Assembly (NCBI GenBank): GCA_026395685.1
Contig: JAPLYG010000001.1
Coordinates: 7,862-71,861 of the forward strand
Length of the DNA stretch: 64,000 nucleotides
DNA from: Candidatus Parcubacteria bacterium
Lineage (GTDB): Bacteria; Patescibacteriota; Patescibacteriia; CAIXNZ01
Direction of reading: 5' to 3'
A program made the translations under genes and the position numbers. The notes below the pieces were generated by a model that was given only the letters and a program-made list of their open reading frames with translations, did no database searches and had not been told where the DNA came from. How positions within the stretch are numbered: position 1 is the stretch's first letter; the number at the start of each line of letters is the position of its first letter. Positions 6,469-59,659 of the stretch are shown piece after piece.

Positions 6469-6639
6469 TCTTTTTACTCTTATTTTATTAAAAAAAGATT
6501 AAATTAAGATAAATTAAAAATTAAGCAAATATTAGCCAAAATTCATTGATCTTTTGTTTAAAAATTGGTACAATTATACTAATATTAAGGTTTTAAAAAT
6601 AAAACTTAAAATATCTACCTAAAAACTAATTTATCGCTT

Positions 6640-7254
6640 ATGAAACTGAAATTAATACGCAAAATAACACTGCCTATTTTGATTGTCAGCTTAATTATTT
6701 TTTCAACTGGTCTTTTAGGCCATGGCATTTTTTGGGGCATTAAAACCGCCTTTGGCTATGGCGGGGGCGGCGGAGGCTATTACCCGCCTGTTAATACAAA
6801 TACAAACACTAATGTTAATGCCAATACTAACATTAATCAACCAATTCAGGTACTTGCCCCAACTATTGATGCTTTTAGCAGTCCGACCGGCAATTCAATT
6901 TTAGTCTTACATGGAGGACGCGATGCCAATACCATTGTTTTTATTAATAATTCAGACAATTCTGTTTCCTATCCTACGGCCACAACTTGGCAAGCGACTG
7001 TTTCTTTGGAAATAGGCCTGAATTTTTTTACTTTAACTGCCAAGAATTCAATCGGCACGAGCAGCGGAGCGGTGGCGATTTTTGTCACTCGCACTGGCTC
7101 TGCTGATATAACTGGCGATAACATAACTGACGATCTTGATTTGGCGAAATTAGTTTCTAATTGGAACAAAAATTGGTCCGATGGCGATTATAATAAAGAT
7201 GGGATAATCGATGATCTTGATTTGGCCTATCTTGTAAGCCATTGGAGTATTTAA
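6640..7254 (+). CDS. Secreted/anchored protein with Gly-rich and (NT)n low-complexity linker and a C-terminal type-I dockerin module
   Basis: N-terminal hydrophobic segment. 'GYGGGGGGYYPP' and 'NTNTNTNVNANTN'. Two 22-aa Ca-binding dockerin repeats: 'DITGDNITDDLDLAKLVSNW' and 'DYNKDGIIDDLDLAYLVSHW'. Confidence 0.55.
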   Translation: MKLKLIRKITLPILIVSLIIFSTGLLGHGIFWGIKTAFGYGGGGGGYYPPVNTNTNTNVNANTNINQPIQVLAPTIDAFSSPTGNSILVLHGGRDANTIVFINNSDNSVSYPTATTWQATVSLEIGLNFFTLTAKNSIGTSSGAVAIFVTRTGSADITGDNITDDLDLAKLVSNWNKNWSDGDYNKDGIIDDLDLAYLVSHWSI

Positions 7255-15422: not shown

Positions 15423-15437
15423 TCTAACTATAAAAAT

Positions 15438-16472
15438 ATGGATGACCGTAAAATACAAGAGATAAGAGAAGGATTACAAAGTTCTCATGTGAATTTTTTA
15501 TTTGGAGCGGGCTTGTCAACACCATATTTGCCATTGCTTGGCGATATTGAGATAAGATTATCAAGAGAAAGGAAATCCGCTGAAAGAATAAAGATAAAGA
15601 AGGAATACTTTGAAAAAGTCATGATCCCCAATTTAGAAATCATAAATAATGATATTACTAGTTCAAAACAGAATGATTTTAATATTACACAAAAAGCATA
15701 TAAAGATTTTTTTGAGCTTATTGGTCACATTTTACTTCACAGAAAAAATACTATTTTAAGTAAACAAGTAAATATCTTTACAACTAATATTGACATTCTA
15801 ATGGAAGTAGCATTAGAGGAACTTAACATGGAATACAATGATGGATTCTCTGGTAGACTAAATTCAGTTTTTAGTTTAAGTAATTTCAAGCGGTCTATTT
15901 TAAAACGAAGCTTGCACTATGAAAATGTATCGGAGGTGCCTATTTTCAATCTGGTAAAAATACACGGTTCCCTTACTTGGAAGAAAATTGAAGACAAGAT
16001 ATTTTTCTCTAAATTAACCCATTTTGATAAATCATTACTAAAAAAGTCTGGGAAAAAATTTGATGACAATTACAAAAAATTAGCAATAGTGAATCCTGAA
16101 AAGAAAAAACTTGAAGAAACCGTAATGGATCTGACTTATTATGAATTACTCAGAATGTATTCTAGTGAATTAGAGAAAGAAAATGTCATTTTATTTATTA
16201 TGGGTTTTTCAATGGAAGATGAACATATAAGAGAAATAACTATTAGGGGTGCTAATTCAAATCCCACATTAAAAATCTATCTTATTAGTCACGAAAAAGA
16301 TACTAATTTAGATCTGGCAAGAAAAATGGAAATCGGAAAATTGAGATATTCAAATATTGAAATAGTAGAACCTGAAGATGGAGAACAAAATAGCAAATTA
16401 AGTCTAACTGTAATTACAAAATTGATTTTCGAAAAAGTGGTTAAGAACATTGCTCATGACAACAAAGATTAA
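15438..16472 (+). CDS. SIR2-family NADase (defence-associated sirtuin) of a SIR2-HerA pair
   Basis: SIR2 signature motifs 'FLFGAGLST', 'FTTNIDILME' (TTNxD) and 'KIHGSL'. Confidence 0.8.
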   Translation: MDDRKIQEIREGLQSSHVNFLFGAGLSTPYLPLLGDIEIRLSRERKSAERIKIKKEYFEKVMIPNLEIINNDITSSKQNDFNITQKAYKDFFELIGHILLHRKNTILSKQVNIFTTNIDILMEVALEELNMEYNDGFSGRLNSVFSLSNFKRSILKRSLHYENVSEVPIFNLVKIHGSLTWKKIEDKIFFSKLTHFDKSLLKKSGKKFDDNYKKLAIVNPEKKKLEETVMDLTYYELLRMYSSELEKENVILFIMGFSMEDEHIREITIRGANSNPTLKIYLISHEKDTNLDLARKMEIGKLRYSNIEIVEPEDGEQNSKLSLTVITKLIFEKVVKNIAHDNKD

Positions 16473-18366
16473 TCCAATTGAAAAAGAATTAGTTAGGGAG
16501 TCAATTTTTATAATTGGACATGTTTTGTCTGTAGAGGGTAGGATTGTCAAAATTAAATTAAATAAAGATAAGAATCATTCCCACATACTGTACGAGGGTA
16601 AAACGGTAAAAAATGTTTCAGTTGGTGGTTATGTAAAAATCATTAAAGGTTTTGTTAGTATTATTGGTAAGGTTGAGGGAGAATATATTACTGAAGAAAA
16701 ATACATCAATAGAGAATATAACAAAGAAGAGATAAAAATAAATAGAATTTTGCAGGTTTCTCTTTTTGGTCATTTTGAAGGTGGTTGTTTTAGACAGGGT
16801 ATTAAAGAAATGCCACTTATTGATAACGAGTGTTATCTTTTAAATAGAGAAGAGTTCAACACCCTTCATCAGTTCTATAAAAATAGTCAGAAGTCGATAG
16901 TCATAGGAAGTTTAACAGAAGAACCTTCGCAAAAGATACGACTAGGTGTCAATAATTTATTTGCTAGTCACATAGGAATATTTGGCAATACAGGAAGTGG
17001 TAAATCAAACACATTAGCCAAAATTTACACTGAATTATTTATAGAATTTGATGATAACGAGGAGTTTAAAGCTAAATCTGATTTCGTGATTATTGATTTT
17101 AATGGTGAATATATAGGTAGGGATATAATTACCAATAATAAAACTGTTTACGAATTATCTACAGGTAAAGAAGGAAGTAAGAAAAAATATCCAATAACTA
17201 GAGAAAATCTTAATAAGGTTGAAGTGTTATCCGTTTTATTAGAAGCTACGGAAAAGACTCAAAAGCCTTTTCTGGATAGGGTTGTAAGAAATGATTACTT
17301 AAATGACGTCGATAAATTTAATAGTAGGGTAATTTCTGATATAGAAGATATTTGCAGAAACATTATTGACAAAAAAGACAAAAATATGCGAGAAGGAGTT
17401 GTGGTTGAGTTATTTGGACGAATTTCAGATTTAGTTTTAGATGAAAGTAAAGATGGGATAACAAATTTAAAAAAAGAAATTGAAAATAATTTGCATTTCT
17501 TTTCAGGTACTGGTGGTACCCCCGAATATTACTGGGCAAATTCCTCAGATTCAAATAATTTTAATAACAAGACACCAATTTATGATAATAAAATAAAAAC
17601 CGTAGTGGATGGTTTAAAATTTAAAAGTGATGAGTTTAGTAAATTAAAACTAAAGATTATACTCAATTATTTTCACGAGACTATTAAGGGATACTCAAAT
17701 CAGGAACACATTGCCCCTTTAATCGGCAGAACTTTTAGAAAATTCGATATGCTTGAAAAGTTAATTGAGATTAATGAAGAAGTAGACTCAAATAACTTAT
17801 CAATTGTTTGTTTGAGAAATGTAAATATTGAAATGAAAAAGATAATTCCTCTTATTGTTTCTAAGCAACTATACGAGAGGAAAAAAGAGATAAATGGGAA
17901 AAAATCATTGCATATCATTGTTGATGAAGCACATAATATTCTTTCAACGATGTCGCAAAGGGAAAGTGAAACATGGAAAGATTATCGCCTAGAAACATTT
18001 GAAGAAATAATTAAAGAAGGTAGAAAATTTGGTGTCTTTTTGACCATCGCAAGCCAAAGGCCATATGATATTTCCTCTACAATCATTTCTCAATTGCACA
18101 ATTATTTCATCCATAGACTAATTAATGATAATGATATTAATGCGGTTGAGAAGGCGGTTTCTTATCTTGATAAGCTATCATTTCAAACTATCCCAATATT
18201 ATCAGTTGGAAGTTGTTTTGTTGCTGGATTAGCTTCGGATATACCTATTAAAGTCGATATTGATCCACTGGAAAAAAACAAAAGACCAAAGAGCGAGACT
18301 GTTGATTTAGAAAATGCGTGGACAAAAATTTTGTCGCCAAATAATCGAAAATCAAGCAAACAATAG
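16450..18366 (+). CDS. HerA/DUF87-family ATPase partner of SIR2
   Basis: Walker A 'GNTGSGKSNTL'. Walker B 'LHIIVDEAHNI'. Size (638 aa) and 23-nt overlap with the SIR2 gene, typical of an operon. Confidence 0.8.
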   Translation: MLMTTKINPIEKELVRESIFIIGHVLSVEGRIVKIKLNKDKNHSHILYEGKTVKNVSVGGYVKIIKGFVSIIGKVEGEYITEEKYINREYNKEEIKINRILQVSLFGHFEGGCFRQGIKEMPLIDNECYLLNREEFNTLHQFYKNSQKSIVIGSLTEEPSQKIRLGVNNLFASHIGIFGNTGSGKSNTLAKIYTELFIEFDDNEEFKAKSDFVIIDFNGEYIGRDIITNNKTVYELSTGKEGSKKKYPITRENLNKVEVLSVLLEATEKTQKPFLDRVVRNDYLNDVDKFNSRVISDIEDICRNIIDKKDKNMREGVVVELFGRISDLVLDESKDGITNLKKEIENNLHFFSGTGGTPEYYWANSSDSNNFNNKTPIYDNKIKTVVDGLKFKSDEFSKLKLKIILNYFHETIKGYSNQEHIAPLIGRTFRKFDMLEKLIEINEEVDSNNLSIVCLRNVNIEMKKIIPLIVSKQLYERKKEINGKKSLHIIVDEAHNILSTMSQRESETWKDYRLETFEEIIKEGRKFGVFLTIASQRPYDISSTIISQLHNYFIHRLINDNDINAVEKAVSYLDKLSFQTIPILSVGSCFVAGLASDIPIKVDIDPLEKNKRPKSETVDLENAWTKILSPNNRKSSKQ

Positions 18367-18436
18367 TTTGTATAAAACACCACTCTCTTAATTAATTCTA
18401 TTAACATTGATAGAATAGATTGTCATTTTAAATAAT

Positions 18437-19906
18437 ATGCCACACCAAATTATAAAATTTTCAGAATATTTTAATCTAAATAAGAGTCAGTACGAACTTG
18501 ATTTTGTTGATGTTCCTATAAATAATGGCGATGTGCCTTTATTTATTGATCCCTATGCAATATCTAAAAGAACTGATTATTGGTCAATTGAGTGTCATAA
18601 TGCAATCGTAGATTTCTTTCAATATTTAATTGATCAAATTAGCCAAGGCAACACTCAACAAGCCAGGAATGCTTTATCTGGTTTAAGGGAGCCAAATCAA
18701 ACCAGATTAGGCATGTCTACTGGAAATAAGCCAAGAGGACGAGGTATCGGGAATGAGCAATCTGAATTTTTATTTTTAGCATTATCAGAAAGCACCGCTG
18801 TAAGAACTGGATTCATAAAAGATCTAGAAGAATGTGAACTTTTAATTGAGGGTATTGGCCGTGATAAAATTTCCGATATAGCCACAAATATAATCAGACA
18901 TAAATTAATTGAGTATACTCAAATACAGTGTGAACTTTGGAATATCACATTAAACTCGGTTCCAAGTGGGATGACATGGAATCAAGATTTAAATGAATGG
19001 GAGAATGAATATGTTAATCTGCCAGTATGTAATTCTAATAGTGTTATTTTAATCCCAAAGGCAATAGCTAGATTTGATATTGAATTTGATTATCAAGAAT
19101 ATTATCAACACTTCGTATTGAATTTTCTTCAATCCGAAGAATTATCTGCAAATTCTTCACTGGTTAGAACTTTAAAAAATGGGACTAAAAAACCACCCTA
19201 CAAAAAAGCTTTAAAGGAAAAATATCCTTTAACCAAGAAATATCTTTATGAATTTTCTAAAGAGCACCCAGATATATTAAGTAATTATAAAACTAGCAAA
19301 GGCTATAATTTAAGAGAATTAAGCGTAGAGGATATTTTATTTTTCGCTTATAAACAAGAGACAAATAGAAGCATTGATTATAATACTTTAAAGAATAAGT
19401 TAAATACCATTCAAACTGGAGACTCAGCCGCTAATCAATATCATGATTATATTATAGGAGCGATGACGGCAATATTTTATCCTTACCTTATCAACCCTAA
19501 AAAAGAGCAGGAAATTCATGATGGAAGGAAAAGAATTGATATAGTATTCCAAAATTCAGCACATGACGGTTTCTTTTTTGAATTACCGAATACTAAATCG
19601 GTTCCGTCCGGGTATATATTTGTCGAGTGTAAGAATTACGCAAGTGATCCCGCCAACCCTGCATTGGATCAATTGTCTGGAAGATTTTCAACTAATAGAG
19701 GTAAATTCGGATTTTTAGTGTGTAGGTCATTTAGCAATAAAGATTTATTTATACAAAGATGCAAAGACACAGCACAAGATGATAGAGGTTTTATTGTCGC
19801 ACTAGACGACGATGACATTGAAAAGTTATTAGAATTTAGAAGTAATAATAATTATGCTGGCATTAATACTTTTTTAGATGATAGATTTAAAGAATTGGTA
19901 ATGTAA
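18437..19906 (+). CDS. Hypothetical protein with C-terminal PD-(D/E)xK nuclease-like core
   Basis: 'RIDIVFQN...GYIFVECKNY' (D...E-x-K) near the C-terminus. The N-terminal 330 aa are unrecognised. Confidence 0.4.
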   Translation: MPHQIIKFSEYFNLNKSQYELDFVDVPINNGDVPLFIDPYAISKRTDYWSIECHNAIVDFFQYLIDQISQGNTQQARNALSGLREPNQTRLGMSTGNKPRGRGIGNEQSEFLFLALSESTAVRTGFIKDLEECELLIEGIGRDKISDIATNIIRHKLIEYTQIQCELWNITLNSVPSGMTWNQDLNEWENEYVNLPVCNSNSVILIPKAIARFDIEFDYQEYYQHFVLNFLQSEELSANSSLVRTLKNGTKKPPYKKALKEKYPLTKKYLYEFSKEHPDILSNYKTSKGYNLRELSVEDILFFAYKQETNRSIDYNTLKNKLNTIQTGDSAANQYHDYIIGAMTAIFYPYLINPKKEQEIHDGRKRIDIVFQNSAHDGFFFELPNTKSVPSGYIFVECKNYASDPANPALDQLSGRFSTNRGKFGFLVCRSFSNKDLFIQRCKDTAQDDRGFIVALDDDDIEKLLEFRSNNNYAGINTFLDDRFKELVM

Positions 19907-19912
19907 TATAAT

Positions 19913-20329
19913 ATGCTTAAAGAATCACAAGTTGAAAATATTTTGAGAGGATACTTAATTAGTAAAGGATGGCGATTAACAAACTTGCCTAAAGGTATTG
20001 GTGAAGGTGGTATTGATATTAAAGGTTATCATCCTATTAAAAGGAAGGTTTTATTGGTAGAGGTTAAAGGTGACGGGAAAGCAAAGAATCAAACACTGCA
20101 TAATGGTTTTTACACTATTTTAGGCCAGATACTTTTTCGCATGGATAAACAAGGTAATGATCAGAAGAAGGCTAGAACCTATGCCTTAGCCATCCCTGCA
20201 AATTGGGAGGATGCGTTTACTAAGAAAATCAAACAAATGCCATACGGCTGGAGTTTATTGCGATTAAAAGTCTTTTTAGTTTCAAATAGAAGCGTTGAAG
20301 AAAAAAATTATAAATATTTTTTAAAATAA
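19913..20329 (+). CDS. Small PD-(D/E)xK-fold protein (YraN/Hjc-like mini-nuclease)
   Basis: 'ENILRGYLISKGWRL...GEGGIDIKGY...LLVEVKGDGKA' resembles the UPF0102/YraN layout. Starts 7 nt after the previous gene. Confidence 0.4.
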   Translation: MLKESQVENILRGYLISKGWRLTNLPKGIGEGGIDIKGYHPIKRKVLLVEVKGDGKAKNQTLHNGFYTILGQILFRMDKQGNDQKKARTYALAIPANWEDAFTKKIKQMPYGWSLLRLKVFLVSNRSVEEKNYKYFLK

Positions 20330-20342
20330 TTAAATATAAATT

Positions 20343-20540
20343 ATGCTCACCTCAAAAATCAAAGTCCTAAACGAAGAAAAAATTGCCAATATAATTTTGG
20401 ATTTAGAACGCGGGAAATTAAAAATTCCAAGATTTCAGCGTCAATTTGTTTGGGAGCGGTCAAAAATTATTAAACTTTTAGATAGCATCTATCAGGAGTT
20501 TCCGATCGGCAGTTTTTTCGGGGGAATGACTTGTGGATAA
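20343..20540 (+). pseudogene. Truncated DUF262 (GmrSD/ParB-like type IV restriction N-domain) fragment
   Basis: 'IPRFQRQFVWERSKIIKLLDSIYQEFPIG' is the DUF262 signature. The ORF stops after 65 aa, whereas intact family members are several hundred aa. Confidence 0.5.
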
Positions 20541-20613
20541 GTATTGTTGTGTTCGGCTTTTGTTCGGGATATAATATTAATAACAAAATATCTCTAAGTA
20601 TTATTCATATTCT

Positions 20614-21564
20614 ATGCCGAAAACGAACTATTGGGATTTAACCAATAGGCCACATACAAAATTAAAACTGGAGATTTATGAAAAATACCTTAAGTCATGG
20701 TGCCAAATTTTTAAAAAACAGGCATGGGCTAAGGATGTTTTTATAGTAGATTGCTTTGCTGGTAAGGGCGATTACCTTGATAATGGCGCAATCGTGGATG
20801 GTTCTCCTCTCATAACCATAAAAACAGTTAAGGAAATTAATGAGGATTTTAAGAATAACAAAGTCAGGAATAAAGATTATTTTAAAATCAAATGTTTTTT
20901 TATTGAAGAAAATTCTGGTTATGCCAATAATTTAACTAAGCTTTTGGAGCCATATAAGAAGGATGTTGAATTTGAAATAATCAATGATGACTTCAATAAA
21001 GTAATCGCTAGGCTGGTAAAAGATATGGCAAATAAGCCGGCGTTATTTTTTATTGATCCCTATGGCATAAAAAGCGTGAATAAATCTAGCATCTTATCAG
21101 TTATTAATAAACCAGGGGCCAAAGATATTTTATTTAACTATATAAACGAAGGAGTCATCAGGATTGCTGGATTAGCCAAGAAAGTAATAACTAGAGACAT
21201 TGACGATATCACAGTCACGGAACTTAAAACAATAAAGCATTTGCAGAATTTTATTGGCGATAAGTTTTTAGAACTTATTGATAAAAATGACATAGAAATA
21301 CTTAAGTATTATGTTGATAATATTTTAAAAAGCAATAATAACGATACTGCCGGGAAAAATAATCTCGATGTAATCGGCTTTGACATGCCTTACCCCAATA
21401 AAAGCGATACGATTTATTATTTATTGTTTGCGTCAAGAAACAAACAGGCGATGAAAATCGTAAGCCAAGTATATGCTAACAGCAAAAAGGAAAACTTGCA
21501 GAAACAAAAAAGCCTTTTTGATTCTAAAGAGCAATTGAGAATACATAAGGATTTTAAGGTCTAA
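20614..21564 (+). CDS. Hypothetical protein, possible TcmP-like partner protein (MTase-like 'IVDCFAGKGDY')
   Basis: N-terminal 'FIVDCFAGKGDYLDNGAIVDGSPL' and 'LFFIDPYG'. Tight pairing with the downstream Cys-motif gene. The assignment is from memory of the family and not verified. Confidence 0.3.
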   Translation: MPKTNYWDLTNRPHTKLKLEIYEKYLKSWCQIFKKQAWAKDVFIVDCFAGKGDYLDNGAIVDGSPLITIKTVKEINEDFKNNKVRNKDYFKIKCFFIEENSGYANNLTKLLEPYKKDVEFEIINDDFNKVIARLVKDMANKPALFFIDPYGIKSVNKSSILSVINKPGAKDILFNYINEGVIRIAGLAKKVITRDIDDITVTELKTIKHLQNFIGDKFLELIDKNDIEILKYYVDNILKSNNNDTAGKNNLDVIGFDMPYPNKSDTIYYLLFASRNKQAMKIVSQVYANSKKENLQKQKSLFDSKEQLRIHKDFKV

Positions 21565-21599
21565 GTATAAATATGATATAATTAAAACATATAAATCCC

Positions 21600-22439
21600 A
21601 TGCAAAAAATAACCAGAAAATCTCTTTTATATAAAAGCGGTGTTGAATACGCTGATTTTTGCATTAATCATGTAGAGGGATGCTCTCATGGCTGTAAGTT
21701 TCCTTGCTATGCCATGATGATGAAAAAACGATGTGGGGTAATTAAGACTTATAGCGACTGGATCCAACCTAAAATAGTAAGCAACGCCCTGGAATTACTT
21801 GATAAGGAAATCCCCAGGTTGAAACATAAGATTAAAGTAGTTCATCTTTGTTTCACAACTGACCCTTTTATGTATAAACAGCCGGAGATTACAGATTTAA
21901 CTTTGAAAATTATTGAGAAGTTAAATGCTAATGGCATCAGATGCACGGTATTGACTAAAGGAATTTATCCTAAAGAATTGGCAGACACTACGAAATATAG
22001 TCCCAGCAATGAATATGCCGTAACTTTGGTTTCTCTGAATAAAAATTTCAAGGAGCAATTTGAGCCTGGCACAGCTCCTTACGAATCAAGAATAAACGCT
22101 TTAAAATATCTGCATGACAGTGGATTAAACACCTGGGTCAGTATGGAGCCTTATCCAACCCCTAATTTAGTCAGGCAAGACCTGGAGAAAATATTGGAGA
22201 AAATAGATTTTGTCGACAAGATAATTTTTGGCAAATTAAATTATAATGTTAAGGTTACCCAATTCCAAGATAATAAAGATTTTTATGATAATTGCGCCAG
22301 TGTTGTTACAGATTTTTGCACTCAAAATAATATAAGCTATCATATTAAATACGGCACGGCAAAAAAAGATAATTTTAAAACAGAGAAAATTTTCAAAGTT
22401 GCGAGCTGTAATTTAGATCCTGTAACTTTTAATGTTTAA
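21600..22439 (+). CDS. COG1533/spore-photoproduct-lyase-like Cys-motif protein (variant 'GCSHGCKFPCYA')
   Basis: 'NHVEGCSHGCKFPCYAMM' resembles the 'GCxHGCxYCYA' radical-SAM-type motif of SplB-like DNA repair lyases, but with CX3CX3C spacing. Confidence 0.4.
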   Translation: MQKITRKSLLYKSGVEYADFCINHVEGCSHGCKFPCYAMMMKKRCGVIKTYSDWIQPKIVSNALELLDKEIPRLKHKIKVVHLCFTTDPFMYKQPEITDLTLKIIEKLNANGIRCTVLTKGIYPKELADTTKYSPSNEYAVTLVSLNKNFKEQFEPGTAPYESRINALKYLHDSGLNTWVSMEPYPTPNLVRQDLEKILEKIDFVDKIIFGKLNYNVKVTQFQDNKDFYDNCASVVTDFCTQNNISYHIKYGTAKKDNFKTEKIFKVASCNLDPVTFNV

Positions 22440-22485
22440 ATATAACTAAAAAAGAGACGATTTAAACGCCTCTTTTTTGTTTTAA

Positions 22486-23946
22486 CTATATTTTTTCTAA
22501 AAACTTTAATATCTCCACCATGGCCATTGTATCCATAAAGCAATAATCCAGCATATCCCTATAAAGTTTATCTTTTTCTTTTTTATCAATATCATGATCA
22601 ATCAAGGTTTTCCAACTATCAGAAGCAGTCCCGCCTTCCTGAATATTTAAATCCTTGTAGGACAATTTGGGAATCAATACGGGCAATACCTTTTTAATAG
22701 ATGCGCTCCCGTGGAAATTCTTATGGACATAATAGCCTTTGCGGAAAATGAGCATTAGATCGTACATTGAATCATTGACTGATTTTAAGAACATAGCATA
22801 TTGCGGAGCCCGTTTTGCCATTTCACTGTTACAGCCCTTTTCAAACATCGCATTCCATGAAATGGCAGTGCCTTTCTTAGATATAAATTTTCTAAGAGCT
22901 TTTAATAAATCTTCAGTCGGATCTTTAAAGTCTTTGGCCAGAAATTCATAATGATTCAGCTTTCCGCCCGGCTTTTCCTGCACATGCAGGGAAAACTGAA
23001 AGACAATGCGCTGATAGGGCTTGTAGCCGTCAAAAAGCGGGATAGCAGGGCTGAATGTCTCGTAATCAAGGAAATAGAGCGGATATTTGAGGTTACTTAG
23101 GTCTTCTTTGATGTTTTCTGGTTCAATATGGACTTTGTTATGCTTAACCACATGTCGGTGCATTAAAGCTCGGTCTCTGGTCAAAAAGTCCTCGGGAACG
23201 TCCTTAATTTCTAAAATATCCTGATCTAGGAGCTCATTTAGCTTTTTCTCGCTTAATCCGCAGGCAATGCTGTAAATTGAGTGGTCTGGCACGTCTTTCC
23301 AGCAGTAATCAATGAATGGGCATTCATAGGGACTATTACATTGCTTTAAGATCCTTATTTGGGGTTCTTTGGGAGATTTGATAAGTTTAAGAGCGGATTC
23401 AATGTTTAGCTTGGTTTCGCTGATCAGATTTCTGACATCAGAAGTAATATCCTCAATCTTTAATAATTTTTTAGGATCAATTTCGCCTTTTCTTACATAG
23501 CTGGTATTGATTACAACCAAATGGGTTTTACCGATTTTATAACCTGCAGATTCAAAACAGACTTTCTGGAAGGACAAGTCAATGATATGGATATCTTTGA
23601 CCTGGGTTGAACTTTTAACTTCGTAAATATCCCACTTGTCTCCGTTCTTAACAAAAATATCAGCCATTGCGTAAAGGCTATTGGCCATGGCAGTGGCTTG
23701 AAAAATAACTTTATTGCCGTCTTTGATCAGTTTGTCAGTATTTTTCTTGGCGGTTTCATAAAGCCCCTCTGCCTTAACTCCCTTAGGAAATAATTTGCGA
23801 GCATAATCTTCAACTTCATAACCTTCGTCAAATATTCTTTGCAATGATTCATCTGTTTCTTCAGGCAACAAATCACGGCGGAATTTATACAGCCAAAGGT
23901 ATTTGTAGCACTGGATATATTTTAGGAATTGGGATTTGGATAGCAT
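22486..23946 (-). CDS. DUF2779-like protein with N-terminal Cas4/RecB-like PD-(D/E)xK nuclease domain
   Basis: 'SKSQFLKYIQCYKYLWL' and 'MADIFVKNGDKWDIYEVKSST' (D...E-x-K), plus a long C-terminal domain. Confidence 0.4.
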   Translation of the reverse strand: MLSKSQFLKYIQCYKYLWLYKFRRDLLPEETDESLQRIFDEGYEVEDYARKLFPKGVKAEGLYETAKKNTDKLIKDGNKVIFQATAMANSLYAMADIFVKNGDKWDIYEVKSSTQVKDIHIIDLSFQKVCFESAGYKIGKTHLVVINTSYVRKGEIDPKKLLKIEDITSDVRNLISETKLNIESALKLIKSPKEPQIRILKQCNSPYECPFIDYCWKDVPDHSIYSIACGLSEKKLNELLDQDILEIKDVPEDFLTRDRALMHRHVVKHNKVHIEPENIKEDLSNLKYPLYFLDYETFSPAIPLFDGYKPYQRIVFQFSLHVQEKPGGKLNHYEFLAKDFKDPTEDLLKALRKFISKKGTAISWNAMFEKGCNSEMAKRAPQYAMFLKSVNDSMYDLMLIFRKGYYVHKNFHGSASIKKVLPVLIPKLSYKDLNIQEGGTASDSWKTLIDHDIDKKEKDKLYRDMLDYCFMDTMAMVEILKFLEKI

Positions 23947-25046: not shown

Positions 25047-25083
25047 TGGGAAAACAAAAAGGGTCCCACGTCGGTGGCACCCT
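25047..25083 (-). terminator. Hairpin plus U-run immediately upstream of the 23962-25029 start (leader attenuator or terminator of an upstream sRNA)
   Basis: Minus strand reads 'GGGTGCCACCGACGTGGGACCC' followed by 'TTTTTGTTTT', about 20 nt before the ATG. Confidence 0.4.
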
Positions 25084-25782
25084 TTCGGGCGCCCAACAAC
25101 CTTTCGGATGTTGACCATTCGCATAGTGCCGATCATGAGACCGTCTTTATGCGAATGGATTTGAGCGACCATGCCCCAAGGAGGAATCCTTGGGGGTTAG
25201 GTCCAAATTGTATGAAATTATTCATATCATACCTTAAAAAATGGTTGCTGTAAAGCGGGGTTACCGACAGTTTATCTACTCGGGTTTCAGCAAAAAGTTA
25301 TCCACAATTTAATTTTTGACTTACAAAATCACAAAATTATAACATATCTGATTTTGCTTAATCTTAGATGAATTTTCATGGTTGACTTACGAGATGTAAT
25401 TATCTGAAAAACACGATTATAAACTTGACGGAACTGCTAGTTAAGCTATAATTAATGTAACAGTTCTTGTGACTAGCTCTTCGAAAACTTAATATCAGCA
25501 ATAAGATATAAGATTTTATAACTAATTAACATTTAAGTTCGGTTTTAAAAAGGAAAAAATCTATAACCCTAATAAAAGGTTTTAGGTTTGAAGTTAAAAT
25601 ATAAGATTTAAAATTAAAATTCTAAAAAAGTTCCAGTCATTTAATATCCCTATAAGATATTAAATTTAATTTTAAACAATCCAGCAATGGGTATATTTTA
25701 ACAACAGACTTAAGGCCTTTTTTTGTTAAAAGCTATCCCCATTGAGGATAGCTTTTTAATTATTTATAATTAATTTTATTTT

Positions 25783-27054
25783 ATGCAAAACTCAGCCAAA
25801 TTAAAAATAGAGTCAATTCCTATTGCTGAACTTAAGGTGGATATTTACAATCCCAGAATCCACACGCCAGAAGCAATAAGCCAGCTAAAAGAGTCAATTA
25901 AAAAGTTCGGCGAAATTTCGCCAATAGTGGCTAATAGTGCTCCCAACAGGAAAAATATTGTAATTTCGGGGCACATGAGAATAAAAGCCTGCTTAGAGTT
26001 AGGGCTTAAGGAAATACCGACAATTTTTGTGAACATCCCCGACATTAATCGAGAAAAAGAATTAAATCTTCGCATGAACCGTACTGGCTCATGGGATTAT
26101 GAACTTCTTAAGAGTTTTGACTTAAATGTCCTTTTGGATGTTGGGTTCGATAACAGTGATTTATCTTTGATATGGGATCAGAACTTGGAAACTGAAGATG
26201 ACAGTTTTGATGTAGAAACGGAATTAAAAGAGATTAAGAAAACAGACATAAAAGTTGGAGATTTATTCCAGATTGGATCTCATAGGATTTTGTGCGGTAA
26301 TTCATTGGATCTTTCAGCAGTAAAAGGGCTTATGGGCGGTAAAAAGACAAGGATGATATATACCGATCCGATCTACAACATCTCTCTGGATTATAACTTG
26401 GGGATTTCTCAGAAACAAAATTATGGCGGACAAACTAATGACAAGAAAACCGATGCTGAATACAAAGAATTTCTGAAAGGAGCTATTTCTAATGGATTGG
26501 CGGTTTCTGAAAAGGATTTACATGTGTTTGTTTACTGTGACCAAAGATATATTGGTTTAATTCAAGATCTTTATCATGAGCTTGGGATAAAGAACCAAAG
26601 GGTCTGCCTTTGGATTAAGAATGGATTTAATGTAACTCCACAAATAGGTTTTAATAAATCATATGAGCCTTGTGTTTATGGAACAATGGGAACGCCTTTT
26701 CTTTCAGACATAAAGAACTTAAGTGAAATTTTAAACAAGGAAATCGGCACAGGAAACAGAACAATTGATGACATCATGGACTTGTTGGATATTTGGCTGG
26801 TTAAACGTTTGCCAGGCCAAGATTACACACACGCCACAGAGAAGCCAACAACTCTCCATGAAAAAGCAATAAAAAGATGTACATCTCCTGGCGATATTAT
26901 TTTAGATCTATTCGCTGGTTCGGGATCAGCCATTATTAGTAGTGAACAACTTAAGCGAGTATGTTACGCCGTCGAGATTGAACCTATCTTCGTACAACTA
27001 ATTATTAACAGGTTTGAAAAATATGCAAACATCAAAGCAAAAAAGCTCAATTAA
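25783..27054 (+). CDS. ParB-N domain fused to beta-class N4/N6 DNA methyltransferase
   Basis: ParB-like 'ISGHMRIKAC'. MTase motif IV 'MIYTDPIYN' precedes motif I 'ILDLFAGSGSAII...YAVEIEP'. Confidence 0.75.
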   Translation: MQNSAKLKIESIPIAELKVDIYNPRIHTPEAISQLKESIKKFGEISPIVANSAPNRKNIVISGHMRIKACLELGLKEIPTIFVNIPDINREKELNLRMNRTGSWDYELLKSFDLNVLLDVGFDNSDLSLIWDQNLETEDDSFDVETELKEIKKTDIKVGDLFQIGSHRILCGNSLDLSAVKGLMGGKKTRMIYTDPIYNISLDYNLGISQKQNYGGQTNDKKTDAEYKEFLKGAISNGLAVSEKDLHVFVYCDQRYIGLIQDLYHELGIKNQRVCLWIKNGFNVTPQIGFNKSYEPCVYGTMGTPFLSDIKNLSEILNKEIGTGNRTIDDIMDLLDIWLVKRLPGQDYTHATEKPTTLHEKAIKRCTSPGDIILDLFAGSGSAIISSEQLKRVCYAVEIEPIFVQLIINRFEKYANIKAKKLN

Positions 27055-27793
27055 ATATGGTGACATTTTTACGCTAGGCGAACATCTTTTATGTTGCGGA
27101 AATTGTACAGATACGGAATTAGTAAAGAGGTTATTGGGCAATAATAAAATTAAATTAATTTTGGCGGATGTGCCGTATGGCGTGAATTTTACCCAATCAA
27201 AAGAAAGTTTATTGAAAAAAGAGACAAAGCATAAAGATATTGTCGGTGATGAAGATCAAAGCGACGAAAAATACAGTTCCTTCACCCGAGAATGGCTAGA
27301 AGCGATTAAACCTTATTTGGAAAGGAAAAATGCCTTCTATATTTTTAATTCAGATAAGATGATTTTTTCACTCAGACAAGGGATTGAGAATGCTGGTTAC
27401 AATTTTGGGCAGCTTCTAATTTGGGTGAAGAGTCAGGCTGTAATCGGACGAAAGGATTATCTTCCCATGCATGAGCTTATTGCATACGGATGGTGTGGTA
27501 CTCATGAATTTATGAAAAGTAAGGCGAAAAGCGTGCTCTTTTATCCTAAACCTCAAAACAACAATCTTCATCCGACAATGAAACCAATCAGTTTGTTAAG
27601 AGATTTGATTTTGAATAGCACAAGGATTGGTGACATTGTTTATGATGGATTCGTTGGGTCTGGGTCAACTATTTTAAGTTGTGAGCAAACTAAGAGAAAA
27701 TGTTTTGCTTTTGAGATCGAACCCGACTATTGCCGAGTTATTCTTGAGAGATTCGAGAAATTAACAGGCATTAAACCTAAAAAACTAACTTAA
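27014..27793 (+). CDS. Beta-class DNA methyltransferase (phage-type orphan MTase)
   Basis: 'LILADVPYG' (DPPY variant) and 'VYDGFVGSGSTIL...FAFEIEP'. Confidence 0.75.
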   Translation: MKNMQTSKQKSSIKYGDIFTLGEHLLCCGNCTDTELVKRLLGNNKIKLILADVPYGVNFTQSKESLLKKETKHKDIVGDEDQSDEKYSSFTREWLEAIKPYLERKNAFYIFNSDKMIFSLRQGIENAGYNFGQLLIWVKSQAVIGRKDYLPMHELIAYGWCGTHEFMKSKAKSVLFYPKPQNNNLHPTMKPISLLRDLILNSTRIGDIVYDGFVGSGSTILSCEQTKRKCFAFEIEPDYCRVILERFEKLTGIKPKKLT

Positions 27794-27797
27794 TACT

Positions 27798-28205
27798 ATG
27801 AAAGATCTAAAAACTAAAGAGTTATTTCTAGACCAGCTTAAGAAGACCCCAATAATTCAGGTCTGTTGTGAAAAAACTGGCATCAGCAGAGCAACACTTT
27901 ATCGCTGGAAAGCAAAGGATAAGGGTTTTGCTGAAAAATTAGATAAAGCCTTAGGCGAAGGCACTGAATTGGTAAATGATTGCGCTGAAAGCATGTTAAT
28001 TTCAGCTATTAAGGATAAAAACATGACGGCCATCACCTACTGGTTAAAAAATAAGTGTCCTGGATATATGCCTAAGCTGGAATTGTCGGGCAAAGTAAAA
28101 GTGGAAAACGAGGCTCTGTCCGAAGAACAGAAGTCTCTAATCAAGAAAGCCCTTGAGCTTTCTGGCTTAAATATTAATGATCCTAAATATGATAAGTACA
28201 AATAA
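27798..28205 (+). CDS. Phage terminase small subunit-like HTH protein
   Basis: 'KTGISRATLYRWKAKDKGFAEK'. Sits directly upstream of and overlapping the terminase large subunit. Confidence 0.5.
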   Translation: MKDLKTKELFLDQLKKTPIIQVCCEKTGISRATLYRWKAKDKGFAEKLDKALGEGTELVNDCAESMLISAIKDKNMTAITYWLKNKCPGYMPKLELSGKVKVENEALSEEQKSLIKKALELSGLNINDPKYDKYK

Positions 28206-29760
28206 TTTTGACCCAGAGCTAATAGCCAAAATAATGGTTGATCAAAAAGTCAGACAGGAAATCGCCTACAATTCTCATGTATTGTTCTTCCATATTTATT
28301 TTAGCCACTATGTCCAATATCAGACTGCGGATTTCCAGCGTAATCTATTTGATTTGACGCATGATGCTGAAAATCCGTTATTGTGCGTGCTCGCTTTTAG
28401 GGGTTCAGGCAAAAGTTCTATTATGTCAGTATCATTTCCGATTTGGGCAGTACTCGGCAAATTACAGAAAAAACACGTGGTGTTGATTGCCCAAACAATG
28501 GATCAAGCCAAACAAATGCTATTTAACATAAAAACCGAGCTTGAAAATAACCAGCTGCTTAAATCGGATCTGGGACCATTTAAGGAAGAAGAAGACTGGC
28601 GTTCATATACATTGGTATTATCCAAATATGGTGCGAGAATTTCGGCGCTGTCAACTGAGCAAAGCAGTAGAGGCATCAGACACAGAGAAAACCGTCCTGA
28701 TTTGATTATTTTAGATGATGTGGAAAATTCTTATTCCGTTAAGACCAAAGAGTCGAGAGACAAATTATATAATTGGTTTAATTCTGAAATTGTGCCTTTA
28801 GGCGATAAGCAAACTCAAACTGTGATAATTGGGAATCTGCTTCATGAAGATTCTTTGATGATGAGAATAAAGGAAAGAATTACCAGCGACAATCTTACCG
28901 GCAAATTTGTAGAAATACCGATTGTTTATAAAGATGGAAAGATTGCCTGGCCGGGAAAGTATCCGACGATGGCTGATATTGAAAATCTAAAAAAAAGAAT
29001 GCCCGATCCCGCCATCTTTGCTTTGGAGTATGAATTAAGAAAAATTGATGATGGAGATAGAATAATTCATCAGGAATGGATTAAAACTTATGCTAATCTT
29101 CCAGATCCCAATGATAAAACACATAGATACTTATTCACCGTCTCAGGAATTGATCCTGCGGCTTCGACTGATAGCGGAGCATGCTTTACGGCAATAATTT
29201 CTGCTCATATCTACCAAATTCGCGAAAGGCTTAAAATTTTTATTTTGCCTAATCCATTAAACAAAAGGCTGACATTCCCTCAGTTGATAGAGCAGATAAA
29301 ATTATTGGATATACGATTAAAAAGGGAGAAACATAAATTATTTATCGAAGATGTTGGCTATCAAAAAGTATTAATTCAGGAATTGTCTTCTCAGTATTTT
29401 GCCGTAGAAGGAATAAAAGTTGGCTCTCTTAATAAGTATGAAAGATTAAAGTTGACCAGCAATGCGGTTTTTGACGGGACTGTTTTGTTTCCTGAAAAAG
29501 GCTGTGAAGCGTTAATAAATCAGATTGTTAATTTCGGCGTAGAAAGATATAAGGATCTGGCAGATGCCTTTTCGCTATTAATTAACCAGCTGATATCCGC
29601 TAATTATAAGCAGAACGAACTTTATGTGACAACAGGAAATTTTACTCATATAAATATCCCCGGTCAAGACCATTTCACTGAACAGTCAAAGGCGGCAAAG
29701 ATAGCTGAATATAAAAGGTTACAGGATAAAATTAACAGAGACGGGTTTCTGTATTTTTAG
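28177..29760 (+). CDS. Phage terminase large subunit (TerL)
   Basis: P-loop 'AFRGSGKSS', 'LIILDDVEN', and a C-terminal RNaseH-like nuclease region with conserved acidic residues. Confidence 0.7.
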   Translation: MILNMISTNNFDPELIAKIMVDQKVRQEIAYNSHVLFFHIYFSHYVQYQTADFQRNLFDLTHDAENPLLCVLAFRGSGKSSIMSVSFPIWAVLGKLQKKHVVLIAQTMDQAKQMLFNIKTELENNQLLKSDLGPFKEEEDWRSYTLVLSKYGARISALSTEQSSRGIRHRENRPDLIILDDVENSYSVKTKESRDKLYNWFNSEIVPLGDKQTQTVIIGNLLHEDSLMMRIKERITSDNLTGKFVEIPIVYKDGKIAWPGKYPTMADIENLKKRMPDPAIFALEYELRKIDDGDRIIHQEWIKTYANLPDPNDKTHRYLFTVSGIDPAASTDSGACFTAIISAHIYQIRERLKIFILPNPLNKRLTFPQLIEQIKLLDIRLKREKHKLFIEDVGYQKVLIQELSSQYFAVEGIKVGSLNKYERLKLTSNAVFDGTVLFPEKGCEALINQIVNFGVERYKDLADAFSLLINQLISANYKQNELYVTTGNFTHINIPGQDHFTEQSKAAKIAEYKRLQDKINRDGFLYF

Positions 29761-29840
29761 TTATCAACAATGCCTCCTGGACTCAGCAAAGCCGTTGCGT
29801 CATCCCTTGTCTTAGGTAATAACTATTAACCTTAAGACCT

Positions 29841-31181
29841 ATGGATCAACCAACGACGCAAATTAAGGGCAATTTGGGGGCTTTAAGCAACAAACAGGCG
29901 GATTTGAAGCCTATACTCAAGTATTGCCTTTACTCAAGAAAATCAACGGAACAAGAGGAACGGCAGGCTCTTTCCATTGATTCGCAAATTAAAGAAATGT
30001 TAAAAGTTGCAGAAAGAGATAATCTGGAAGTAACCGAGATTAGGCGTGAAAGCCATTCTGCCAAAGCTTCGGGAGCCAGGCCGATTTTCAAACAGCTGTT
30101 AGTTGATATTGAGAAAGGACTATTCAATGGAATTTTAACCTGGGCTCCCGACAGGTTAAGTAGAAACGCTGGGGATCTGGGCGAATTGGTCGATCTGATG
30201 GATCATCAAAAACTGATTGAAATCAGAACATTCAGCCAGATATTCACTAATTCACCTAATGAAAAATTTCTACTGATGATCTTGGGCAGTCAGGCCAAAC
30301 TGGAAAACGATAATAGGGGCGTTAATGTCAAAAGAGGATTAAGAGCCAGAGTTGAAATGGGTTTGTGGCCCGGCCAGGCGCCGACTGGTTATCTGACTAA
30401 TAAAAATGTTGATAAGAAAGGTCAAGTTTTAGTAGATCCAGACCGAGCTCCAGTGCTCCGCAAAATGTTTGAAAAAGTAGCTTATGAAAATGTTAGCGGT
30501 CGTAAACTATATGCCTGGCTAAAATTTGATATAGACTTCAAAACTAAATACGGCAAACATTTAACGCTAAGCAATGTATACAGAATTTTAAATAGCCCGT
30601 TTTATTACGGCAGATTCCAATATCCTAAAGAAAGCGGAAACTGGTATCAGGGCAAGCATGAACCATTAATATCGCAAGAACTCTATGAACTGGTACAGCA
30701 AGCGATTACCAGAGGCCAGCATATTAAATCAGAAGCAAAGGAATTCATGTTTGTTAAGCTGATTAAGTGCGGAGCCTGCGGATCAGGAATAACCGCAGAT
30801 GAAAAATTCAAAAAGCTATTGGACGGATCAGTAAGCAGATATGTTTATTACGGATGCACTAAGAGCAAGGATATCCATTGCAAGACAGGTTATATAAGAG
30901 AGGACGAATTATTAAAGCAGATGCTGGAATTGATTGATCGGGTCGATCTTAATCAGCTGGGCATAAAAGAAAAAATAGAAAATGAAATAGACAGGTACTA
31001 TAAATTCAAAACCAGCGTGCTTGGCGAGTCAGACACAAAGAAAAATAAGCAAAAAGATCTGGATATTAAAAATTATGCCAAGTACATCTTAAAGGAAGGC
31101 AGTGTTTATGAAAAAAGAGATTTGTTATCTAACTTAAGAAGCAAGCTTGTACTTAAGGATAAAAAGTTGATGCTGGAATAG
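29841..31181 (+). CDS. Large serine recombinase/integrase
   Basis: Resolvase catalytic region 'YCLYSRKSTEQEERQALSIDSQ'. Recombinase domain, then zinc ribbon 'CGACGSG...YYGC' and a coiled-coil tail. Confidence 0.8.
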   Translation: MDQPTTQIKGNLGALSNKQADLKPILKYCLYSRKSTEQEERQALSIDSQIKEMLKVAERDNLEVTEIRRESHSAKASGARPIFKQLLVDIEKGLFNGILTWAPDRLSRNAGDLGELVDLMDHQKLIEIRTFSQIFTNSPNEKFLLMILGSQAKLENDNRGVNVKRGLRARVEMGLWPGQAPTGYLTNKNVDKKGQVLVDPDRAPVLRKMFEKVAYENVSGRKLYAWLKFDIDFKTKYGKHLTLSNVYRILNSPFYYGRFQYPKESGNWYQGKHEPLISQELYELVQQAITRGQHIKSEAKEFMFVKLIKCGACGSGITADEKFKKLLDGSVSRYVYYGCTKSKDIHCKTGYIREDELLKQMLELIDRVDLNQLGIKEKIENEIDRYYKFKTSVLGESDTKKNKQKDLDIKNYAKYILKEGSVYEKRDLLSNLRSKLVLKDKKLMLE

Positions 31182-31277: not shown

Positions 31278-31352
31278 TGGTACCGCCTAGGGGAATCGAA
31301 CCCCTGTTACCAGGATGAAAACCTGGTGTCCTAACCACTAGACGAAGGCGGC
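31278..31352 (-). tRNA. tRNA-Glu(UUC), CCA encoded
   Basis: Minus strand reads 'GCCGCCTTCGTCTAGTGGTTAGGACACCAGGTTTTCATCCTGGTAACAGGGGTTCGATTCCCCTAGGCGGTACCA'. Cloverleaf with anticodon loop 'TTTTCAT'. Confidence 0.85.
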
Positions 31353-59308: not shown

Positions 59309-59382
59309 TTGGGCGAGTAAAGGGAATCGAACCCTTGTTAACGGGACCACAACCCGCTGCTCTACCATTGAGCTATACCCGC
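59309..59382 (-). tRNA. tRNA-His(GUG) with encoded G-1 and C73. CCA not fully encoded.
   Basis: Minus strand reads 'G-GCGGGTATAGCTCAATGGTAGAGCAGCGGGTTGTGGTCCCGTTAACAAGGGTTCGATTCCCTTTACTCGC-C'. Anticodon loop 'TTGTGGT'. Confidence 0.8.
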
Positions 59383-59528: not shown

Positions 59529-59587
59529 CGTGTGTCCCCGCTAGGAATCTCCCGCGAAGCAGGATCCGCCTCTGGCGGAGAACCTTG
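59529..59587 (-). repeat. GGATCCGCC-hairpin element plus a duplicated 3' end of tRNA-Arg
   Basis: Minus strand immediately 3' of tRNA-Arg reads 'TCCGCCAGAGGCGGATCC...', then 'TTCCTAGCGGGGACAC', a repeat of the tRNA T-stem and acceptor 3' strand. Confidence 0.55.
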
Positions 59588-59659
59588 TGTCCCCGCTAGG
59601 AATCGAACCTAGATCTAAAGCTTAGAAGGCTTTCGTTCTATCCATTGAACTACAGGGAC
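59588..59659 (-). tRNA. tRNA-Arg(UCU). CCA not encoded.
   Basis: Minus strand reads 'GTCCCTGTAGTTCAATGGATAGAACGAAAGCCTTCTAAGCTTTAGATCTAGGTTCGATTCCTAGCGGGGACA'. Anticodon loop 'CTTCTAA'. Confidence 0.8.

Follow-up and report, generated by a model that had tools for sequence, protein, structure and literature searches.

A LOOT RNA gene beside integrase and terminase genes in a Candidatus Parcubacteria contig

The DNA considered here, referred to as the window, is a stretch of 64,000 nucleotides from Candidatus Parcubacteria bacterium (NCBI GenBank assembly GCA_026395685.1, contig JAPLYG010000001.1, positions 7,862 to 71,861 of the forward strand). Near 25 kb it carries a GC-rich cluster of hairpins, flanked on one side by a run of plus-strand genes for methylases, terminase subunits and a large serine integrase, and on the other by a minus-strand gene that leads into a set of defence genes. 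An earlier note on this DNA, made from the letters alone, had placed a candidate noncoding RNA or riboswitch at 25061–25270. The cluster is a copy of LOOT, a structured RNA catalogued in Rfam that comes from the ultra-small, uncultivated bacteria of the candidate phyla radiation (CPR), and its 3' end, putative promoter and gene neighbourhood suggest how such an RNA might act on a mobile element.

A LOOT RNA on the minus strand

The Rfam scan with cmscan, proposed earlier as a check, returns a full-length match to LOOT RNA (RF03000) at 25076–25203 on the minus strand, and this is the sole non-tRNA match in the whole window. It scores 80.9 bits, far over the gathering score of 46.4, with an E-value of 1.2e-13, and covers model positions 1–121 of 121 without truncation. 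On the evidence of sequence, the cluster of GC-rich hairpins represents a minus-strand gene for LOOT RNA, about 150–170 nt long. The functional strand had been left unassigned, and no match to tmRNA, RNase P, SRP or common riboswitches had been recognised by eye; the stretch does match a known family. The locus is a further copy of a catalogued family and no new RNA class. LOOT is one of the structured RNAs of Weinberg et al. 2017 (NAR 45:10811, PMC5737381), where it is named only in the supplement.

Base composition and folding set the RNA apart from its surroundings. The GC content of 25061–25270 is 49.5%, close to the 50% estimated by eye, and that of the RNA proper (25050–25203) is 53.9%. 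The background, supposed to lie near 30%, is 37.3% for the window; only the immediate flanks reach 24–33%. The 271-nt minus strand folds at -96.6 kcal/mol, compared with -65.2 ± 4.9 kcal/mol for shuffled sequences (z = -6.5; 0 of 200 shuffles as good). The 128-nt core folds at -67.8 kcal/mol (z = -8.2), and its minimum free energy (MFE) structure is exactly the four hairpins of the Rfam model. The fold z-scores, together with the GC contrast with the flanks, indicate a real structure, well beyond chance. The interval first proposed overshoots the 5' side of the RNA by about 65 nt: 25204–25270 holds leader and promoter-like site and is unstructured. The parts of the RNA, all on the minus strand, are the following.

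25226–25254, minus: promoter-like site TTTACA-17 nt-TATGAT, matching 10 of 12 consensus positions
25204–25211, minus: leader motif ACAAUUUG, the window form of the family motif ACAAYUKAAUA
25076–25203, minus: LOOT core, hairpins H1 to H4 (cmscan, MFE)
25167–25203, minus: H1, outer stem GACC/GGUC and inner stem CCCCAAGGA/UCCUUGGGG with an internal loop between them
between H1 and H2, minus: linker GCUCAAAU
25115–25158, minus: H2, basal stem of 11 bp, CCAUUCGCAUA/UAUGCGAAUGG, around an apical part of 22 nt (inverted repeat, MFE)
25129–25142, minus: pseudoknot 5' arm GGUCUCAUGAUCGG, inside the apical part of H2; its partner is 25062–25074
25094–25113, minus: H3, 8 bp, CAACAUCC-GAAA-GGUUGUUG, with a conserved GAAA loop (cmscan, covariation)
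25076–25093, minus: H4, GGCGCCC-GAAA-GGGUGCC (cmscan, MFE)
25051–25075, minus: 3' tail ACCGACGUGGGACCC and U-run UUUUUGUUUU (25051–25060), outside the Rfam model

Homologues were collected with a search pattern taken from the Rfam consensus (CCTAA.C ... GCATGG ... GT-8-GAAA-8-G). The pattern matches 42 stretches in IMG/VR and at least 120 stretches in a genome collection; a filter on helix complementarity leaves 90 LOOT-like sequences besides the window among the matches listed. The covariation alignment (A1) was made with MAFFT and holds 84 sequences. No LOOT-like DNA occurs among 50,697 isolated-phage records. The 85 genomic loci among the matches listed comprise 62 in metagenome-assembled genomes (MAGs) labelled as CPR/Patescibacteria, 15 in MAGs labelled otherwise and 8 unlabelled; the CPR labels include Saccharibacteria, Microgenomates and Parcubacteria. 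The name LOOT is presumably tied to the OP11, OD1 and TM7 lineages of the CPR bacteria. A view of LOOT as a Bacteroidetes RNA was dropped once the genome scan had led to CPR lineages. The closest relative among the matches listed lies in a Candidatus Falkowbacteria MAG (locus L083), with a LOOT that is 91% identical over 125 nt. True LOOT copies are also seen in a complete TM6 genome (L078, CP011212) and in 14 other loci without a CPR label, where the labels are Gammaproteobacteria, Bdellovibrionales, Verrucomicrobiia, Acetobacterium, Desulfosporosinus, Pacearchaeota, Bathyarchaeota and Methanofastidiosum; either these are CPR contigs that were binned wrongly, or the element has carried LOOT to other lineages by horizontal transfer.

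Covariation across the 84 homologues backs the LOOT helices. The stems of H1 are paired in 95–100%; in H3 all 8 of 8 pairs covary and 94.9% are paired. In the H2 basal stem 10 of the 11 pairs covary, and the 65% of cells that are paired there reflect a ragged stretch of the MAFFT alignment. A degraded coding remnant, named earlier as the alternative, is excluded: the overlapping open reading frames (ORFs) of 64 and 59 aa sit inside the covarying RNA structure and are therefore taken as spurious. All hairpins quoted in the earlier note are present and belong to H1, H2 and the H4/tail region, although H3 was overlooked and two of the quoted pieces were misassigned. One of the quoted sequences, GGGCGCCC, is no separate hairpin; it is the 5' strand of H4.

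The motifs for which LOOT is most conserved recur in this copy: CCUAA and GCAUGG of H1, which are upper-case (highly conserved) letters in the Rfam consensus, and the GAAA loops of H3 and H4. Read from 25203 to 25167, H1 runs GACC-UAAC-CCCCAAGGA-UUCC-UCCUUGGGG-CAU-GGUC. Its internal loop is formed by CCUAAC (25196–25201) and CAUGG (25169–25173), where the Rfam consensus has CCUAAa/CAUGG. The consensus of the 11-nt GAAA-tetraloop receptor is CCUAAG/UAUGG (PMC2615604; bioRxiv 10.1101/2024.03.11.584472), and 9 of the 11 positions are alike. The internal loop thus resembles the 11-nt receptor, and the GAAA loop of H3 is a candidate docking partner that would compact the RNA. As with the receptors of group I and group II introns and RNase P, the loop is flanked by C-G and a GAAA loop (that of H3) lies in the same RNA. 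Two features differ: the canonical closing G-U is replaced by an A-C juxtaposition in the LOOT consensus (C-C in the window), and a C takes the place of the first U in UAUGG.

The 3' end, the candidate promoter and the leader

The sequence that follows H4 is complementary, in every true LOOT, to the 5' strand and loop of the apical hairpin of H2. In the window, GGUCUCAUG-A-UCGG (25142–25129) pairs with CCGA-CGUGGGACC (25074–25062). The arm sits between both strands of the H2 basal stem, and for this reason the tail pairing amounts to a pseudoknot. In the 84-sequence alignment 11 of 11 pairs of this helix show two-sided changes, and pairing holds in 93.6% of cells, a level equal to that of H3, which serves as the control. 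Two positions are mostly U-G, pairs that make sense only in an RNA of the minus strand. An alignment-free comparison agrees: arm and tail of the same locus reach a mean of -17.6 kcal/mol, compared with -9.4 kcal/mol for swapped partners, and the native partner ranks within the best 10% in 88% of loci. RNAduplex over-extends duplexes when given long segments, and anchored arms and column counts were relied on for that reason.

A weaker pairing competes for the same nucleotides. The apical part of H2 can form a local hairpin of 5 bp, the helix of the Rfam model, with -5.8 kcal/mol in the window; it is paired in 68.7% of cells, in a ragged region of the alignment. The arm/tail helix of the window, joined by a GAAA loop, reaches -24.2 kcal/mol, and the two are mutually exclusive. 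The U-run UUUUUGUUUU (25060–25051) stands directly after the tail, and its U's can pair with the A-rich stretch 25143–25147 that lies 5' of the arm. Since the long helix ends straight in the U-run, it would act as an intrinsic terminator of LOOT's own.

The window copy would have a second, conventional option for termination. On the minus strand of 25062–25083, GGGUGCCAC-CGAC-GUGGGACCC can form a local hairpin that overlaps the 3' strand of H4 and is followed by the U-run (-18.6 kcal/mol). L083 retains this hairpin, with a single compensatory change (C-G to U-A); in the wider subfamily of the window it is not kept, and it is no feature of the family. The other misassigned piece of the earlier note, GGGTCCCACGTCGGTGGCACCC, concerns this region: the pairing that was quoted, of the 3' tail with the 3' strand of H4, exists, yet it belongs to an alternative terminator-like hairpin outside the family fold.

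The 5' side likewise carries recurrent signals. Hexamers resembling a -10 box pile up at -40 to -20 from H1, with 23, 37 and 31 per 10-nt bin compared with 3–14 elsewhere. Of 91 loci, 49 have the leader motif ACAAYTKAATA 8–20 nt ahead of H1, as a rule 7 nt past the -10 box; in the window ACAATTTG abuts H1. With -10 boxes and motif upstream of H1, LOOT appears to be its own transcription unit that starts near the leader motif, with a -10-like promoter of its own and a conserved leader. Two candidates for this region were rejected. A Bacteroidetes-type -7 promoter motif abutting H1 was dropped, as the family has sigma-70-like -10 boxes, and a pairing of the leader motif with the H1–H2 linker was dropped because it is not conserved (ACAACUGAAUA variants lack the pairing).

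Some loci depart from this leader. In eight (L047, L059, L107, L114, L115, L134, L135 and L150) an extra 5' hairpin (CAAGUGG...CCACU) replaces ACAAYUKAAUA, and in two others (L077, L149) the motif is accompanied by an added GAAA-capped hairpin. With these replacements and additions, the family varies more at its 5' end than the Rfam model shows.

The phage-like element and the genes on either side

Upstream of LOOT, and divergent from it, lies a core module of five genes (25783–31181, plus strand), which ends near a tRNA gene. Downstream, on the strand of LOOT itself, genes of quite different character follow. The features are these.

25783–27054, plus: ParB-N DNA methylase (Pfam/PHROGs)
27014–27793, plus: second methylase (Pfam/PHROGs)
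27798–28205, plus: small terminase-like helix-turn-helix protein, TerS-like (Pfam/PHROGs)
28177–29760, plus: large terminase, TerL (phrog_38, 3.9e-66)
29841–31181, plus: large serine integrase (phrog_95, 7.7e-67)
31278–31352, minus: tRNA-Glu(UUC), starting 97 nt past the integrase stop codon
23962–25029, minus: first gene downstream of LOOT, with its ATG 21 nt past the U-run; product of 355 aa bearing a PD-(D/E)XK-like motif
22486–23946, minus: DUF2779/Cas4-like nuclease, next after the 355-aa gene
21600–22439: radical SAM protein
20614–21564: TcmP
20343–20540: GmrSD_N fragment, 65 aa
18437–19906: PDC-M36A
16450–18366: HerA (PADLOC, 6e-177)
15438–16472: SIR2 (PADLOC, 2e-60)
14583–15422: specificity-like ORF
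12519–14327: type IIG restriction-modification enzyme

TerL is merely 25–29% identical to the terminases of Mu-like phages. The tRNA-Glu gene is likely the integration site and the right border of the island. No attachment (att) sites were recovered: a search of 24.8–31.6 kb yielded no convincing direct repeats linking the ends of the island. The 355-aa product has no family match and is treated as cargo. The 3' side of LOOT (12519–23946) consists, by annotation, of defence genes, and the whole, some 19 kb next to a tRNA, is a defence island. Further tRNA genes (tRNA-His and tRNA-Arg) stand well away from it, at 59311–59382 and 59587–59659. Between LOOT and the ParB-methylase gene runs an AT-rich spacer of 580 bp (25204–25782, 20–30% GC), which contains inverted repeats (25571–25603 and 25692–25724) and a terminator-like hairpin (25728–25756); it could hold regulatory, packaging (pac) or origin (ori) sequences of the element.

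Other LOOT loci share parts of this arrangement. The loci that were compared span at most 8 kb and are not centred on LOOT. Searched with the window proteins (tblastn), the 90 other loci yield a serine recombinase in 32 cases, the ParB-methylase and the second methylase in 14 each, and the TerS-like protein and TerL in 13 each; at least one of recombinase, TerL, TerS-like protein and ParB-methylase is present in 41 of 90. The block ParB-methylase, second methylase, TerS, TerL stays intact, with LOOT at either end, and the position of the integrase varies. Neither capsid nor portal genes lie beside LOOT in the window or in L001 and L008, and no terminal repeats indicative of a circular element occur in the IMG/VR contigs L001, L008, L019, L040 and L042. 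As judged by gene content, the LOOT of the window lies on a phage-like integrative element of CPR/Patescibacteria, as do nearly half of the other loci. Comparison with L083 locates the RNA within such an element: LOOT is 91% and the ParB-methylase gene 71% identical, and past the U-run the two sequences are unrelated. LOOT thus sits where the conserved core gives way to variable DNA, towards which it points.

Gene order around the family is consistent with a leader. Of 83 loci, 66 have the next downstream ORF on the strand of LOOT and 59 have it within 150 nt; on the upstream side, the ORF is divergent in 56 of 88. LOOT is placed here as a promoter-proximal leader would be. The 59 proteins encoded downstream belong to at least 17 unrelated Pfam families, and most have no Pfam match. 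Examples are DUF4352 (five cases), DUF5067 (four), proteases, zinc-ribbon membrane proteins, a methylase, and nuclease-like proteins with DUF2726 and NOV_C. Such heterogeneity speaks against a classical pathway-specific riboswitch and fits cargo or moron genes. RNA and cargo can also move as a unit, as indicated by two loci (L136 and L143) that have the 3' part of LOOT and the downstream gene in common, at 89% identity over 726 bp, while H1 and the upstream sequence differ. The homology starts just after H1, so that these are mosaic LOOT genes.

Many relatives carry sequences that mimic parts of LOOT near the start codon. In 21 of 90 loci, L124 and L136 among them, the 2–8 nt before the downstream ATG are preceded by a perfect repeat of 9 nt or more from the H2 5' strand of that very locus, with an A-run in front of it; the rate in controls is 0.7%. 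Given these copies, the 3' strand of H2 could have two alternative partners, one inside LOOT and the other the initiation region. In some loci the tail can, in addition, pair with the segment after the U-run (native -11.5 and swapped -8.8 kcal/mol), with 34% of loci in the best decile where 10% is expected. Mimic and tail/post-U-run pairing would define a second global fold for transcripts that read through.

A proposed gate for cargo genes, its rivals and related systems

On balance we lean, with modest confidence, towards LOOT being a self-terminating structured leader or small RNA (sRNA) that gates read-through into the cargo of the element. The following steps are proposed from sequence comparison. 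(i) LOOT's own promoter would yield a compact leader RNA that terminates itself. (ii) Pairing of the tail with the H2 loop would displace the weak local hairpin, and the resulting helix with its U-run would end the transcript. (iii) Most transcripts would stop at the U-run and persist as a stable small RNA. (iv) A minority would read through and express the cargo genes, here the nuclease-like gene and then the defence island. (v) In many relatives, read-through would go hand in hand with a structural switch: between U-run and start codon, a second H2 5' strand and a second pseudoknot 5' arm would capture the H2 3' strand and the tail, and so occlude translation initiation. The window copy would possess the terminator part only.

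Several points weigh against this reading. Rfam files LOOT as 'Gene; sRNA', the type of a trans-acting sRNA. A helix of up to 19 bp within a closed loop of 22 nt is sterically strained, and it may be that the pseudoknot and the basal stem of H2 cannot both form completely. The site of the U-run is not called by a simple consensus terminator scan. About half of the loci are without element genes within their 8 kb or less, and the ORF calls around LOOT loci are mechanical. The search pattern demanded CCTAA, GCATGG and the GAAA of H3, so their invariance in the set arises by construction; what shows them to be conserved is their upper-case lettering in the Rfam consensus. Neither the mimic nor a hairpin after the U-run is present in the window copy and its subfamily (L083, L071, L091, L140 and L144); with the decoys absent, a cis role at this locus rests on the terminator, the gene order and the 21-nt gap.

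A bolder version of the gating model, which we regard as rather doubtful, would make LOOT no free-standing sRNA at all, but a structure-switching leader specific to CPR mobile elements, in which a pseudoknot terminator and decoy-driven refolding of H2 couple read-through with access to the start codon. If true, it would describe a portable, gene-independent expression gate at a cargo hotspot, possibly one that answers a signal from element or host.

The most serious competitor, though it has clearly less than an even chance, is a stand-alone sRNA with its own terminator, which would act in trans on RNAs or proteins of element or host, for example as an immunity or maintenance RNA, and would have the downstream genes as mere neighbours. 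Its promoter-like site, the strong terminator-like 3' end, the Rfam type and the heterogeneity of downstream genes would all suit such an RNA. So would a receptor-like loop and a GAAA loop, which are typical of RNAs working as folded particles, and the lack of complementarity between the window copy and its downstream leader. Neighbours by accident are harder to reconcile with a same-strand gene that follows in 66 of 83 loci, mostly at a distance under 65 nt, with a mimic that tracks each locus's own H2 sequence (21 of 90), or with the joint inheritance of the LOOT 3' part and the downstream gene in L136 and L143; nor is an exposed, conserved single-stranded seed evident. The two readings are not exclusive, as a terminated leader can act in trans too. 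A classical riboswitch, in which LOOT would sense a small molecule and control the gene behind it, is very unlikely. The complex conserved fold, the pseudoknot and the mutually exclusive pairings that resemble an expression platform invite the idea. The downstream genes (DUF4352 proteins, proteases, zinc-ribbon membrane proteins, methylases, nucleases) share no pathway, however; the few conserved unpaired nucleotides are accounted for by the receptor-like motif and the tetraloops, and the window copy is without an expression platform. A riboswitch was one half of the earlier proposal; its other half, a candidate noncoding RNA, is borne out.

Two further explanations place the meaning of LOOT in the element's DNA or its particle. 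Genes for tRNA, tmRNA and ffs serve as phage att sites, and LOOT could be, or contain, the att site of the neighbouring large serine recombinase, the association then reflecting integration at a host RNA gene. The recombinase is present in 32 of 90 loci, often less than 500 nt away and divergent; the homology breakpoint of L136 and L143 falls inside LOOT, just after H1; the invariant CCUAA/GCAUGG would be a good conserved target, and att sites in noncoding RNA genes have a precedent (PMC12540744). We nevertheless hold this to be improbable. Integration should be betrayed by flanking copies or fragments of LOOT, and 89 of 90 loci are single-copy among the matches listed, the extra copy in the remaining locus (L135) being full length; the window has no LOOT fragment elsewhere, and its LOOT and tRNA-Glu sides share no convincing direct repeat. 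The window integrase abuts tRNA-Glu and not LOOT, covariation rich in G-U speaks of selection on the RNA, and LOOT occurs together with the module on IMG/VR viral contigs as well. A structural or assembly role would make LOOT a packaging RNA of the terminase, by analogy with phi29 pRNA, or a self-assembling RNA like ROOL and GOLLD, which are reportedly ornate RNAs borne on prophages; its contacts would then be intermolecular. LOOT adjoins TerS and TerL genes in 13 loci, it has tertiary-contact motifs, and the loop–tail pairing is sterically easier in trans. This is scarcely probable all the same: the compact modules (window, L001 and L008) contain no portal or capsid genes, many LOOT loci lack terminase genes, and there is no likeness to pRNA in sequence or structure.

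Compared with the Rfam family, the window copy is the same in its four hairpins, the CCUAA/GCAUGG loop and the GAAA loops, and differs in nothing essential. The leader motif, the tail pseudoknot with its U-run, and the link to mobile elements fall outside the model of 121 positions. Attenuators and riboswitch expression platforms are alike in their terminator-like helix and U-run, and many LOOT members have exclusive folds covering the start-codon region; LOOT differs in the long-range pseudoknot stem, in its unrelated cargo genes and in a window copy that lacks switch sequences. Among prophages and their satellites, the P4 CI RNA and moron cassettes with their own promoter and terminator offer parallels. 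LOOT is comparable in its location on what looks like a phage element, by integrase and terminase and at the edge of defence-rich cargo, and it bears no relation to them in sequence or structure. The pseudoknot terminator, the element link, the position at the cargo border and the decoys were not found in the accessible literature, which does not cover LOOT's original supplement, and their novelty is uncertain.

The identification closes the question raised by the earlier note: the element is a copy of a catalogued orphan RNA from the barely studied CPR/Patescibacteria. It also adds testable leads on LOOT, namely the covarying pseudoknot and terminator, the link to integrase, terminase and methylase genes, the cargo border and the decoy sequences. 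If these hold, LOOT would help to locate mobile elements and cargo hotspots in the genomes of CPR bacteria, and would exemplify RNA-based control of cargo expression.

Multiple copies occur in a few places. A second LOOT copy in the same locus was found by nhmmer only in L135 (1 of 90 among the matches listed), where two full copies (5376–5501 and 6595–6734, oriented coordinates) lie 1.1 kb apart on the same strand, an arrangement that suggests tandem LOOT–cargo cassettes. Two MAGs each contain two LOOT paralogues (L072 and L159; L145 and L152). In one of these MAGs each copy lies 145 nt from the start of a contig, as if a repeat had interrupted the assembly there.

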